A stretch of 64,000 nucleotides of DNA from a virus, in IMG/VR virus record IMGVR_UViG_3300029286_002355, positions 32,001-96,000 of that record. One strand, written 5' to 3'. Positions within the stretch are counted from its first letter, which is position 1. Every line of letters starts with the position of its first letter. The position numbers and the translations under genes were made by a program. The notes below the pieces were generated by a model, which was not told the DNA's origin, did not search any database, and worked only from the letters and a program-made list of their open reading frames with translations. Shown piece by piece: positions 19,062-49,270 of the stretch.

Positions 19062-20030
19062 CTATTTTTTCATATTTTTTTCAACATAATCTTTTTCCTC
19101 TTTACTCAGGGTATGACAAATAAACCTAAATTTTCCACCCATCACCCGTACAACATACTTCTTTTTAGATACGACATTCCTAAGATAATGCATCCATCCT
19201 TTCCCTAAAAAGTTTTTCTTGTTAAATCCCGTAACCTCCACATATGTATTTGTTTCTGGAAAAAAGAAATCGTATCTTTTTAGCCCTCTTTTCCCAAGAT
19301 GCCCATATTTTTCATTGTGGATAAAGTTTAAATTATCTTTTTTGTATTTCAAATAAAAGAATGCTTCTGTTTTAGATGCGCACCTTGCACCATCCTTAAG
19401 AACTATCTTGTTTGCCTTACTACATTTTGGACAGTGGTTCCCGTCATTTCTATGATAAACCTCTGTTTCCCATTCATGCCTACAGGTAGAACATATCCAC
19501 CATGCCACAAAATTACTTCCGGGAGATACATCGAATGGAGTACGCTTCCTATTTTTTGTGGGGTGCCATTCTTTTGCTATTTTAGGCAGTTGGGTCTTCA
19601 AACAATTACTTTTACAAACCTTATGTCCGCTACAATATGGACAGCCGTTACCGCTATTTCTATAATTAATTCCGGCTTTCCATTCATGTGTTTCACCATT
19701 AACAATATGCTCCCACCATACGGATTTGCTAGAACCCGGCAAAAAATCAAATGGGCCTCTTACATTTTTGTGTCCCCACTCTTTAGAAAGTAATGGGTTA
19801 ACAGATCCTAACGATATACACTTAGGACATTGACCATAATTAAAGAGAGTCCTGTAATATATTTTTGTTTTCCATTCATTTCCGCATTTTATACATTTCC
19901 ACCATGCTTTTCTGTCAGATCCATAACCAATTTTTGTTACATCGAGTTTTCCATTTTTTGTAGGGTGCCATTCTTTTGCCAATATTGGATTGTGTATAGC
20001 AAGGGATATCTTTTTACAATTTTTTTTCAT
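19062..20030 (-). CDS. Zinc-ribbon-repeat (DUF4379-like) protein with C-terminal PD-(D/E)xK-like nuclease; putative homing endonuclease
   Basis: Repeats LAKEWHPTKN...WWKC..C..EW, CPYCSG; C-terminal SKTEA...YDFFFP..YVEVTG. Confidence 0.75.
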   Translation of the reverse strand: MKKNCKKISLAIHNPILAKEWHPTKNGKLDVTKIGYGSDRKAWWKCIKCGNEWKTKIYYRTLFNYGQCPKCISLGSVNPLLSKEWGHKNVRGPFDFLPGSSKSVWWEHIVNGETHEWKAGINYRNSGNGCPYCSGHKVCKSNCLKTQLPKIAKEWHPTKNRKRTPFDVSPGSNFVAWWICSTCRHEWETEVYHRNDGNHCPKCSKANKIVLKDGARCASKTEAFFYLKYKKDNLNFIHNEKYGHLGKRGLKRYDFFFPETNTYVEVTGFNKKNFLGKGWMHYLRNVVSKKKYVVRVMGGKFRFICHTLSKEEKDYVEKNMKK

Positions 20031-20212
20031 TGTTTTACCCCTTCTATTTTTATATTATACACATTTATGATAATATCTTCTATGTATTGGGATAGAAACG
20101 ATTCTAATTCTTCTACTATAAGCGATTCTATATCAATGTGGTGTGATCTAATTACTTCTAGTTTTTGGACTAAATCAACTAACCTAACAGTACTGGTAAT
20201 ATTGAGTTGCAT
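20027..20212 (-). CDS. Small protein, possible ribbon-helix-helix regulator
   Basis: 61 aa with strand-helix-helix pattern (ITSTVRL / LVQKLE / IESLIVEELESFL); SD aaggag. Confidence 0.5.
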   Translation of the reverse strand: MQLNITSTVRLVDLVQKLEVIRSHHIDIESLIVEELESFLSQYIEDIIINVYNIKIEGVKQ

Positions 20213-20340
20213 TGGCGGCTTCTCCTTATTATATTAAACACAAAAGCCCAAGAATACCTCCATAGAAGCCGCCAAGCTAACAGGGGAGAGTCTCCAAGGG
20301 CTTTTGTTATGTTCATTTTATTTAGCTTTGGCGGCTTTTT
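20212..20340 (-). ncRNA. Putative pseudoknot/switch leader RNA, copy 1
   Basis: P1 20322-20337 pairs with 20266-20280, which is the loop of a long hairpin closed by 20298-20307/20240-20249; 10 nt of P1a repeated at the start codon (20212-20221). Confidence 0.6.
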
Positions 20341-20380
20341 CATACACTAATATTATACAATAAAAGCCATCAAAATACCT

Positions 20381-44708: not shown

Positions 44709-46019
44709 ATGAACTACCCAGACACTAAAGATGTCTGGGTTTCTATAGGATAGTTCCTACCCTTTTGAAATCCCATATTGGTTAATGCAAAGTCTTTAAC
44801 GTTCTTGGAAGCATTAACGTCTCTATCATGCTCCGAACCACACTTCTTACATTTCCATACTCTTTCATCTAATGTGAGTTCGTGATAGACTTCTCCACAA
44901 ACATTACAAGTCTTGCTGGACGGTTCAAATCTTCCTATCTTTAGAAAATTCTTACCATACCAATCGGACTTGTACTGAAGCATTCGGGTTAAATTGAACC
45001 AACCTAAATCTCCTATAATTCTGTTTGTAGGTGCTTGATTTTGACTCTGCATGTTTTTAATAGATAAGTCTTCAATACAAATCGTCTCTACTTGGTTATC
45101 GTGAGTCAATTTGTGTGATAGTTTATCTAAGAAATCTTTCCTTTGTCTTGCTATTTTTGCGTGTAACTTACTTATTTGCTCCTTCTTTGATATATGTTTT
45201 GTTGAACCCTTTGTTAGTAACTCTAGTTCTTGCTGATGTTTTGCTAGTTTATCTTGAGATTGCCTGAAGTATTTTGGTGATTCGATTTTATCTCCGTTTG
45301 AAATCGTCAAGAACATTTTAACACCAAAGTCTATTCCAACGGTCGTACTTTCTTCAACCGCTGGCTTCTTAGGAAACTCTATATTTTGTTCTACCAATAT
45401 TGAGGCATAATACTTTCCGTCATTTCCTCTTGAAACAGTGCATTGTTTAATATTCCCTTCAAAAGCTCTATCAAATATGCACTTCAATCTATTATCCCTA
45501 TTCTTGGTTTTAATGAACTTCGGGAGGTAAAGACGATTGTTCTCAAAATCTGGTCTAATGGAGTTAGCTTCAGGACAACAGAACGATTGCTTGTTATTCT
45601 TTCTTGACTTAAATTTAGGGAATCCCATGTTAGAACGGAAGAAGTTGGTATATGCGTTGTCAAGATTTCTGATAGTTGCTTGTAACGATTGACTGCCTAT
45701 TTCGTCTAGCCATTCATGTTCTTTTTTTAGTTCTATAAGGCTATTAGCTAAATCTACCCATCCAATAGTTTTTTTAGTTTCCTTGTAGTGAGTAATCTTC
45801 TTTTGAAGGAAGTGATTATAGATGAATCGACAGGAGCCAAAGTGTTTTTCAAGCAAAACTCTTTGTCCTTTATTTGGATACAATCTATATTTGTAAGCTA
45901 GTAATTTCATACTACTAATCTTCTTCTATAACTATTTAGTCTTTTCCTCTAATTATTTTTGGATATTTTAGTCGCTTACATCCACGACACTAAAGATGTC
46001 GTGGTTTTACGCTCCCAGA
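44709..46019 (-). mobile_element. IS200/IS605-family tnpB-only element 2
   Basis: LE GAGCGTAAAACCACGACA-TCTTTAG-TGTCGTGG after TTTAT; RE GAAACCCAGACA-TCTTTAG-TGTCTGGGTAGTTCAT. Confidence 0.88.
44714..45910 (-). CDS. tnpB: RNA-guided endonuclease TnpB
   Basis: AYKYRLYPN HTH, VGIDFG, ICIEDL, EPSSKTCNVCG, CKKCG..HDRDVNA. Confidence 0.95.
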   Translation of the reverse strand: MKLLAYKYRLYPNKGQRVLLEKHFGSCRFIYNHFLQKKITHYKETKKTIGWVDLANSLIELKKEHEWLDEIGSQSLQATIRNLDNAYTNFFRSNMGFPKFKSRKNNKQSFCCPEANSIRPDFENNRLYLPKFIKTKNRDNRLKCIFDRAFEGNIKQCTVSRGNDGKYYASILVEQNIEFPKKPAVEESTTVGIDFGVKMFLTISNGDKIESPKYFRQSQDKLAKHQQELELLTKGSTKHISKKEQISKLHAKIARQRKDFLDKLSHKLTHDNQVETICIEDLSIKNMQSQNQAPTNRIIGDLGWFNLTRMLQYKSDWYGKNFLKIGRFEPSSKTCNVCGEVYHELTLDERVWKCKKCGSEHDRDVNASKNVKDFALTNMGFQKGRNYPIETQTSLVSG

Positions 46020-46148
46020 ATAAACTTTCTTTTTGCCATTTTTTAATTTTCGACGCCAATACCCTCTTTCTATTTTACGAATTTTGTTACAACGATCACA
46101 TTTTACATATTTATATTCTCTACACTTTATTTTTTCTAAATTTTTCAT

Positions 46149-46266
46149 TTTACCCTTTAAAATAGACAAGCTCCTAACAGCTATCTTTGACGGCGGCTAA
46201 ACCATTTCAAGACAAGACCATTAAGAGCTTATCACTATATTTCTATTTTAAGGTTTAGCCGCCTTT
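46149..46266 (-). ncRNA. Putative pseudoknot/switch leader RNA, copy 2
   Basis: 12-bp P1 46252-46263 with 46192-46203, the loop of a long hairpin closed by 46223-46232/46166-46175; TATAAT at 46273-46278. Confidence 0.6.
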
Positions 46267-46316
46267 CATAACATTATACAAGAATTTAACAGAAAAACCT
46301 CTATTTCTATCCATCA

Positions 46317-48310: not shown

Positions 48311-49156
48311 TTATCGTTCCAGTTTCTGAACGTAATAAAATCTGTAAAATGATCCATATTTAGTCCCGCTTCTACCCCTAAGAAACCCAGTAACTTCTGT
48401 GTATGTGTTACTATGTGGAAAATAAAAGTCACATTTGCATCTTCCTAAGCCATACATCTTATTATGTTCGAAGATTTTCCCTTCTGTCTTATATTTTAGA
48501 TACATATAAGCTTCTGCAACAGAATGGCAGAATGTTCCATCTTGAAGGACGATACCCTGAGAACAAAGGGGGCAAGAACTTGTTGTGTTCCTGTGGTATA
48601 TCTTTGCTTCGTATTCATGCCCGTTTGGACAGATCCACCAAACTTTATACTTGCTGTTGGGAAGAACGCCATATGGAGTTATGCCTTTATTTCTGGTTGG
48701 ATGCCATTCTTTTGTCAACTCTGGATTTTGAGTCGCCAGACAGTTATCTATACATGCCATATGATTTGAACAATACGGACATCCCCTAGTATTTTTGGTT
48801 CTGTTCCCGACAGAAGATTTCCACTGATGTCCCTTTGAGCATATCCATTTATATTTCTTGGAAGAAAACGGTAATACGTCATACGGACTACATTTATTTT
48901 CAAAAGACCACTCAAGTACTAGCTCTGGAAAAAGATTACCCAAACAATTTTCTAGGCTTACTATCTTATTTTCGCAATATGGACATCCATATCCACCATA
49001 TCTATTGTCTACTCTCGCCATCCAAGAATGACCACAACTGCATTTCCACCAAACCTTTTCTTTACTCCATACCGATATTTTAGATGGATCTAATTCATTT
49101 TTAGCATCATCCCAATCAATATATAACTTAGAATTCTTAACATATTCTCGTTTCAT
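48311..49156 (-). CDS. Zinc-ribbon-repeat (DUF4379-like) protein with PD-(D/E)xK-like nuclease, paralog of 19062-20030
   Basis: WWKCSCGHSW, CPYC repeats, LTKEWHPTRN; C-terminal HSVAEA..CDFYFP..YTEVTG; start MKREY after SD ggag. Confidence 0.75.
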   Translation of the reverse strand: MKREYVKNSKLYIDWDDAKNELDPSKISVWSKEKVWWKCSCGHSWMARVDNRYGGYGCPYCENKIVSLENCLGNLFPELVLEWSFENKCSPYDVLPFSSKKYKWICSKGHQWKSSVGNRTKNTRGCPYCSNHMACIDNCLATQNPELTKEWHPTRNKGITPYGVLPNSKYKVWWICPNGHEYEAKIYHRNTTSSCPLCSQGIVLQDGTFCHSVAEAYMYLKYKTEGKIFEHNKMYGLGRCKCDFYFPHSNTYTEVTGFLRGRSGTKYGSFYRFYYVQKLER

Positions 49157-49270
49157 TTTCGCAGTCTCCAAAAAAGTAGGCCCAAACCAATCACGAGACT
49201 GCGAAATCAAGAAGTGACCAGAATGGACCTACAAATTTTTCCTATTATATAAGTTTCGCAGTCTTATATA
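49157..49270 (-). ncRNA. Putative pseudoknot/switch leader RNA, copy 3
   Basis: AGACTGCGAAA (49254-49264) complementary to hairpin loop 49196-49206; identical 11-mer at 49157-49167 directly before ATG; stem 49224-49232/49176-49184 followed by U6. Confidence 0.65.

Follow-up and report, generated by a model that had tools for sequence, protein, structure and literature searches.

Three RNA leaders in the genome of a phage most likely belong, judged by sequence, to one architectural class that borders mobile endonuclease cassettes on their 5′ side in a group of large AT-rich phages. We observe in them a set of complementary segments, the conservation and covariation of these segments, and their linkage to cassettes with four endonuclease types, and we consider it probable that the leaders are a cis-acting RNA switch controlling both transcription and translation of the endonuclease cassettes. 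An earlier sequence-only reading of this DNA had proposed an undescribed cis-regulatory RNA of this kind – a translation or termination switch – and that proposal is supported here by the absence of any Rfam match and by covariation in homologues.

Three leaders on the minus strand

The leaders lie in a virus record of 186 kb with 36% G+C, of which the window, the whole stretch of 64,000 nucleotides analysed, covers bases 32001–96000. Nearly all genes of the record are on the minus strand, and the three regions are therefore 5′ leaders read on that strand. Copy 1 (20212–20340), copy 2 (46149–46266) and copy 3 (49157–49270) are all present, on the minus strand, where the sequence-only reading had located them, and with the topology that it had recognised: a 5′ segment (A5), an A/U-rich linker, and a long two-part hairpin with an apical loop (A′) complementary to A5. 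A U-run and a Shine-Dalgarno (SD) sequence stand 3′ of the hairpin, and a third copy of the repeated segment (A3) lies over the translation start in copies 1 and 3 and is absent from copy 2. For two of the three leaders (copies 1 and 3) relatives are known in other phages, in which base changes stay paired. The further claim that all three precede mobile endonuclease genes holds for copy 3, which abuts an endonuclease gene, but not for the other two: copy 1 is directly 5′ of a 61-aa ORF rather than of the endonuclease itself, and copy 2 is directly 5′ of a 52-aa zinc-ribbon ORF, followed by TnpB and then by an HNH gene.

Copy 1 is placed between a DNA methylase gene (stop codon 20381–20383) and the 61-aa ORF (20027–20212, minus strand), which is the first gene of the cassette, contains an HHIDI motif, and has an ATGA overlap with HEG1, a DUF4379 zinc-ribbon endonuclease-like gene (19062–20030, minus strand). 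Read 5′ to 3′ on the minus strand, the first element is seg0 (TTGATGGCTTTT, 20362–20373), an imperfect copy of A′ located 10 nt upstream of the –10 hexamer, which by its position would be able to pair with A5 in read-through transcripts only. An extended –10 promoter follows (TGTATAAT, 20352–20359), a motif that is invariant in all homologous leaders, and then A5 (AAGCCGCCAAAGCTAA, 20322–20337), the 5′ strand predicted to pair with the hairpin loop. The bipartite hairpin is 64 nt long (20242–20305), with an outer stem formed by AAAAGCCC and GGGCTTTT and an apical loop, A′ (TTAGCTTGGCGGCTTCT, 20264–20280), that is complementary to both A5 and A3; with the U-rich tail (20230–20241) it makes a terminator-like element. 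The SD sequence GGAG (20222–20225) is followed by A3 (AGAAGCCGCCAA, 20212–20223), whose last base is the first base of the start ATG of the 61-aa ORF. The repeat across the start codon noticed earlier is thus real, A3 being a second copy of the A5 core. The genome's other sites of the copy 1 core 11-mer are in coding DNA and look like chance. For the product of the 61-aa ORF AlphaFold predicts two helices (pLDDT 82), and this predicted helical hairpin falls in no recognised RNA- or DNA-binding family.

Copy 2 (leader 46125–46280, minus strand) is placed between an AAA/FtsH-like gene and the 52-aa ORF, with its ATG at 46146–46148. It has a TGTATAAT promoter at 46273–46280, A5 at 46252–46263 and a hairpin at 46165–46233 with A′ at 46192–46203, and the 3′ strand of the hairpin covers a GGAG. 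The 52-aa ORF was considered as a severed N-terminus of the HNH gene and is probably not one, since its Atlas neighbours are stand-alone viral proteins of 49–61 aa. Between this ORF and TnpB there is an 8-bp hairpin (CCACGACA...TGTCGTGG, window 45925–45975, minus strand); this may form the left end of the TnpB element, in which case the copy 2 leader would lie outside it.

Copy 3 (leader 49133–49270, minus strand) is flanked by an NAD-ligase gene and by a second DUF4379 gene, an endonuclease gene at 48311–49156 with its ATG at 49154–49156. Its A5 (AGACTGCGAAA, 49254–49264) is followed by a clean 9+8-bp hairpin (49177–49232) with A′ at 49195–49206, by six U residues directly 3′ of the hairpin (49171–49176), and by A3 (49157–49168), a repeat of AGACTGCGAAA immediately before the ATG. 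Copy 3 thus has the same triad of direct repeat, complement and direct repeat as copy 1, which the sequence-only reading had missed. It has no clear seg0 and no clear promoter of its own; an ATGA-coupled 10-codon ORF finishes right at A5.

The motif TGTATAAT is a general promoter motif of the genome, with 51 sites, mostly upstream of minus-strand genes (examples are at window 34840, 66974 and 143897, minus strand). At several sites ATGAAA opens an ORF after exactly 6 nt, and this spacing suggests that leaderless mRNAs may be frequent in the phage.

Homologues of copy 1 and their covariation

Homologues of copy 1 were sought by an exhaustive phmmer search with the 61-aa ORF and by a pattern scan scored with a covariance model. 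The phmmer search gave six remote relatives of the 61-aa ORF, of 55–91 aa, with the motifs HH(I/V)DI and QYIE(E/D)I, and the loci examined were four from this search (L204, L205, L206/L207 and L208) and one from the pattern scan (L226). The leader is present in all of these five other phage contigs. GenBank phages gave no match in a megablast with the copy 1 region, and among 80 loci from a search with the DNA methylase neighbour none was syntenic.

The order of parts is invariant: seg0, the promoter TTGTATAAT, A5, linker, bipartite hairpin with A′, 5–8 U, AGGAG, and an ATG with A3. The stems of the hairpin differ in sequence among the homologues. The fourth segment, seg0, is TTGGTG-like and lies 8–10 nt upstream of the –10 hexamer and upstream of the invariant TTGTATAAT promoter; it is an imperfect, G·U-tolerant copy of A′ in which most differences are C-to-T changes that keep G·U pairs, a pattern that appears to be an RNA signature on the minus strand. 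A3 varies in position, from the SD–ATG spacer to codons 2–6, and is always inside the ribosome footprint. The nuclease encoded downstream is of the DUF4379 type in copy 1, L205 and L206, GIY-YIG in L208, HNH in L226 and another zinc-finger type in L204, so that the conserved module is the leader together with the small ORF. L206 is syntenic with copy 1: the small ORF and the DUF4379 gene are followed immediately by an isochorismatase gene.

The core sequences vary by phage (GCCGCCAA, ACCGCCAA, GTCGCCAA and GTCGCTAA), with the changes matched across all segments of each locus. Among five distinct sequences, A5:A′ is 88% paired with five pairs changed on both sides, and A′:A3 is 95% paired with six such pairs; seg0:A5 is 90% paired with three pairs changed on both sides, and its U·G is kept in four of five sequences. 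The covariation score was reached by none of 500 shuffles and slid registers were 13–64% paired. The sets are small, with 5–6 distinct sequences of the copy 1 type and two of the copy 3 type, and related sequences can beat shuffles without structural constraint, so that these controls do not wholly remove the effect of relatedness. That three or four repeats change in concert could in part be due to gene conversion between them. As a complement A′ is composite: it reaches toward the 3′ side of A5 and toward the 5′ side of A3, which fits RNA helices rather than repeated protein-binding sites. Conservation across six contigs, as we read it, excludes a chance origin of the copy-1-type leaders.

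A further TGTATAAT motif, at 20054–20061, falls within the codons of a conserved NVYN motif close to the 3′ end of the 61-aa ORF, and the motif is also embedded near the end of the small ORF in L204 and, in a weaker form, in L205. In the 61-aa ORF it could give rise to a second, leader-independent endonuclease transcript.

A homologue of copy 3

Among full-length relatives of the copy 3 endonuclease, the best (56% identity) is encoded directly behind the NAD-ligase gene of another phage (L166–L168). The spacer there (L166:3879–4021, 122–140 nt) aligns with copy 3 and has an A5 (GGACTGCGAATCCA), an 8+7-bp hairpin with A′ in a 21-nt loop, six U residues, an SD sequence, and an A3 (GGGACTGCGAA) before the ATG. 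From copy 3 to L166 an A-to-G change beside the core is matched in A5, in A′ (as U to C) and in A3, and at the other end of A5:A′ an A-U pair is swapped for U-A; the hairpin stems of the two leaders are unrelated in sequence. L166 also has a partial upstream copy of A′ that pairs with A5, bringing its segments to four, and a strong SD with a 20-codon ORF running over the first two segments and stopping inside the 5′ strand of the hairpin. In L166 (segment 1, L166:3893–3902) and in L208 (seg0, L208:88–96) the upstream segment is in each case a perfect 9–10-nt match, in contrast to its G·U-rich version elsewhere. Searches of viral and metagenome contigs with exact-core patterns of the copy 3 type yielded chance matches only, within GC-rich coding DNA.

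Assignment to one class

A covariance model (R1) was built from five copy-1-type sequences with the A5:A′ helix only. In the whole genome its best non-training matches are copy 2 (25.7 bits) and copy 3 (25.6 bits), both as full-length alignments; L226 scores 32 bits and L166 only 10 bits. Antisense matches on true members reach 24–32 bits, near the scores of copies 2 and 3, which therefore mainly reflect a rare long-range helix at the right spacing; we take these scores to show shared architecture and not as proof of common descent. In 308 kb of other endonuclease loci R1 had no match at E≤1, and in 593 kb of bacterial DNA preselected for promoter and core motifs it had none of at least 22 bits. 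The bacterial pattern scan gave at least 120 chance matches, and among the 80 listed loci that were scored with R1 none reached 22 bits.

Rarity, folding and known families

The 186-kb genome has exact 10-mer triads at three sites only, namely copies 1 and 3 and the 3′ end of a TnpB gene; twenty Markov shuffles gave about 0.2 per genome. Among 381 starts with an SD and ATG, the longest upstream complement of a start region is 12 nt, found at copies 1 and 3 and, as a tie, at one other start (window 26515). The triad in the TnpB 3′ end (genome 11882–12010, outside the window; L085 about 1383–1511) consists of a perfect 11-bp hairpin (TCAAATGCCGC...GCGGCATTTGA) and a third copy about 100 nt downstream, and may be part of the TnpB guide-RNA scaffold. 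Local 10–12-bp hairpins over the SD and start codon were also seen at window 1950 and genome 23078 (minus strand), one of them with a 5′ strand that overlaps its own –10 region.

Folding z-scores are –3.1 for copy 3, –3.6 for copy 2 and –1.2 for copy 1, the last being weak because nested folding cannot credit crossing helices. Nested minimum-free-energy folds contain A5:A′ in copy 1, L204 and L208, and A′:A3 in L205 and L207; the choice thus varies among members, which indicates that the two states are close in energy. Computed energies are –16 to –26 kcal/mol for the duplexes, with A′:A3 at 11–16 bp and –19 to –21 kcal/mol, and –25 to –34 kcal/mol for the hairpins. All members have a G+C-containing outer stem of 8–12 bp followed by 5–8 U, the stem and U-tract of a terminator; the hairpins are bipartite, 60–70 nt long, with apical loops of 19–25 nt, which is atypical for intrinsic terminators, and a simple consensus terminator scan did not flag them. 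No part of the window matched Rfam 15 at gathering thresholds; copy 1 gave chance-level matches only (E≥0.11) and the homologous loci none at E≤0.1.

A proposed switch and its alternatives

From this arrangement we infer transcript ends, termination and the direction of regulation as follows. Four mutually complementary segments in alternating orientation – seg0, A5, A′ and A3 – would make up the switch, in which the hairpin (H), helix P (A5:A′) and helix Q (A′:A3) all cross and P excludes Q through the A′ that they have in common. Only 0–4 nt separate A′ from the inner stem, so that a full P or Q would be incompatible with a full hairpin. A5, which is made first, would capture A′ before the 3′ strand of the hairpin exists and so serve as an antiterminator, weakening the terminator-like hairpin and leaving the start site open, while the alternative A′:A3 pairing would close the start site. 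In read-through transcripts seg0 would tie up A5 as an anti-antiterminator, the hairpin would then terminate, and in transcripts that escaped termination A′:A3 would close the start site. In transcripts from the leader's own TGTATAAT promoter, which lack seg0, A5 would take A′ and the first gene would be translated, and along with it the endonuclease, whose start overlaps the first-gene stop.

No terminator lies between the upstream stop codon and seg0, and read-through transcripts are therefore expected; as seg0 lies upstream of the promoter with no terminator separating them, it would be carried by read-through transcripts only. That the input of the switch is the origin of the transcript, own or read-through, is a tentative proposal to which we give somewhat less than an even chance. 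Because copy 2 has no A3, and copy 3 no clear seg0 or promoter, this input is not general as stated, and in these two copies a trans factor or a short upstream ORF may provide the input instead. Moreover, seg0:A5 is weaker than A5:A′, and strand displacement could erase the discrimination between own and read-through transcripts.

The nearest rival, which we hold to be unlikely but worth keeping in view, retains the same RNA switch and lets a trans factor set the choice between A5:A′ and A′:A3; candidates are the small two-helix protein (by autoregulation), a ribosome on a short upstream ORF, processing of the 5′ end, or an RNA-binding protein of phage or host. Alternative folds of nearly equal energy would suit a switch tipped by a factor, the small ORF is always found alongside copy-1-type leaders with its stop overlapping the endonuclease start, and short upstream ORFs stop inside the 5′ strand of the hairpin in L166 (20 codons, SD-led) and right at A5 in copy 3 (10 codons). 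Against this, the small protein belongs to no recognised binding family, and seg0, conserved, covarying and at its fixed distance of 8–10 nt from the –10 hexamer, would have no role; the upstream mini-ORFs are not conserved among copy-1-type leaders, and for this reason a leader-peptide attenuator was set aside as a general mechanism. The same fixed spacing of seg0 speaks for a reading at the DNA level, in which the repeats are operators that bind a cassette or phage protein controlling the TGTATAAT promoter, with RNA pairing incidental. Protein autoregulation is common in the family, many related cassettes having a ribbon-helix-helix regulator gene instead, and one related locus has repeated operator-like motifs. 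Such operators would nevertheless have to alternate strictly in orientation (–,+,–,+), as pairing requires, and to include two of four copies that are 60–120 bp past the promoter, one of these within a hairpin loop; the C-to-T changes of seg0 keep G·U in RNA but would alter a DNA site, A′ is extended differently toward A5 and A3, and the site sequences differ by phage, so that protein specificity would need to co-evolve each time. We regard operators as very improbable.

Lower still, at the bottom of the scale, is the idea that the leader of about 110 bp is itself a small mobile insertion, MITE-like or templated, with the 10–12-bp repeat as target-site duplication and the loop as guide; an RNA-templated insertion had been the other proposal of the earlier reading, and it is not upheld. 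It would explain the direct repeat, internal complement and direct repeat of copies 1 and 3; if one repeat and the interior are removed from copy 1, what is left is an in-frame ORF that opens with ATG behind a nearly leaderless promoter, and Y1-transposase/TnpB elements do occur in the genome. The interior, however, occurs only once in the genome, there is no multi-copy family, terminal inverted repeats are lacking, and a fourth complementary segment is present 5′ of the promoter. The downstream repeat of four homologues sits inside the opening codons of the conserved first gene or extends across them, and point changes make the repeats diverge together with that gene; such a repeat is missing from copy 2, and copies 1 and 3 have no linked recombinase. 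A different, trans-acting reading, which we rate as a long shot, would see in the U-run-stopped RNA of about 110 nt, with its loop 'address' of 12–17 nt, and the two-helix protein a programmable control or immunity module for homing endonucleases, beyond a passive insulator. If true, the RNA would, in co-infections, silence the start sites in copies of the same cassette that come in or compete, and the module would be a portable unit exchangeable among four unrelated nuclease families.

Mobility of the cassettes and other control modules

A relative contig (ENA sample ERZ1426824, for which the gene map only was used) encodes an FtsH-like protein 81% identical to that beside copy 2, with a ligase–FtsH gap of 40 nt. 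It is without copy 3 and its endonuclease and without the copy 2 cassette, has a DUF5131 gene in place of the copy 2/TnpB block, and carries a 61-aa ORF and DUF4379 gene at another place. The absence of both leaders together with their cassettes indicates that the leaders travel with inserted cassettes. Scanning viral contigs with the FtsH-like neighbour as the single query protein gave no match. DUF4379 endonuclease genes adjoin NAD-dependent DNA ligase genes in several unrelated phage contigs, which suggests that the ligase gene region is a preferred homing site.

The leader is not a constant companion of these nucleases. Two further DUF4379 genes of the genome have no such leader upstream, and in 80 viral loci with DUF4379 relatives there was no GC-containing triad and no comparable leader, R1 found nothing, and upstream stood only local start-codon hairpins or operator-like repeats. 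Other full-length relatives of the endonuclease have a ribbon-helix-helix gene, or no spacer, in the leader's place. Most relatives elsewhere thus do without the leader, which is one of several control solutions of these nucleases. Small ribbon-helix-helix-type ORFs overlap the start of a DUF4379 nuclease at L169:613–777, L178:1055–1219, L179:108–278 and genome about 184975–185140, that of L169 in a leaderless TGTATAAT-N6-ATG arrangement; such an ORF is a putative alternative, protein-based control module of the same nuclease family.

Relationship to known systems

Homing endonuclease genes need expression enough to spread, without harm to the phage operons that they invade, and to our knowledge little is known of how this balance is controlled outside T4-like phages. 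T4-type homing endonuclease genes (I-TevI/II/III, segB and Aeh1 mobE) have structures that sequester the ribosome binding site (RBS), with an internal promoter that yields translatable transcripts (PMC2988022). The leaders described here resemble them in standing before a phage endonuclease, in having an upstream complement that would hide the ribosome site (as A′:A3), in a promoter placed so that its transcripts lose one strand, and in restricting a selfish nuclease among essential genes. They differ in having four segments rather than two and in a promoter that removes only seg0 rather than the anti-RBS strand: the TGTATAAT promoter is upstream of A5 and A′, and its transcripts would retain the anti-RBS. 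The effect of losing seg0 would thus be relayed through A5 and A′, with the anti-RBS in the loop of a terminator-like hairpin, and the gene under the leader's control would in most members be a small first one, with a stop codon that overlaps the start of the endonuclease.

Fold-back inhibition in IS10 is a form of self-protection against impinging transcription. IS200 uses a left-end terminator and an SD-sequestering stem-loop to the same effect (PMC4513863). As in these elements, a terminator at the upstream edge and an RNA structure hiding the start would keep outside transcription from activating the element. The terminator of IS200 is a separate element from its SD hairpin; in the phage leaders a single loop sequence connects terminator, antiterminator and start site, and the leader cassettes have no transposase and no evident antisense RNA.

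The pyr, trp and infC leaders of B. subtilis are classical attenuators built of anti-antiterminator, antiterminator and terminator; classical attenuators sense protein, tRNA or ribosome, and their antiterminator competes for a strand of the terminator stem. The phage leaders share the serial alternative helices before a U-tract hairpin, with an upstream element that decides the downstream fate, but differ in that the competitor would pair with the apical loop of the terminator (a pseudoknot-type intrusion) and the same loop would mask the start site. Two families of mobile-element RNA were set aside. For IS110/IS1111 bridge (seek) RNA the neighbouring genes are of the DUF4379, HNH, GIY-YIG and TnpB types, with no DEDD recombinase, and there is a single loop, complementary to sequences of the same leader, as against two target and donor loops. 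For TnpB omega-RNA and IscB HEARO RNA there is no Rfam match, and copies 1 and 3 have no TnpB; copy 2 stands before a distinct 52-aa ORF, and another hairpin comes between this ORF and tnpB. The leaders are best filed as a new architecture on an already known theme, that of RNA structures by which the expression of selfish genes is made independent of where they are inserted.

On this understanding, the leader would represent a compact, portable and sequence-reprogrammable control of mobile nucleases in uncultured phages. The outcome would be a new RNA family for annotation and a testable case of a loop-intruding antiterminator that doubles as an anti-RBS, and the leader with its small HHIDI protein could serve as a marker for mobile nuclease cassettes in metagenomic phage genomes. 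Because each member has its own pairing code, an orthogonal insulator part could also be made from this design.
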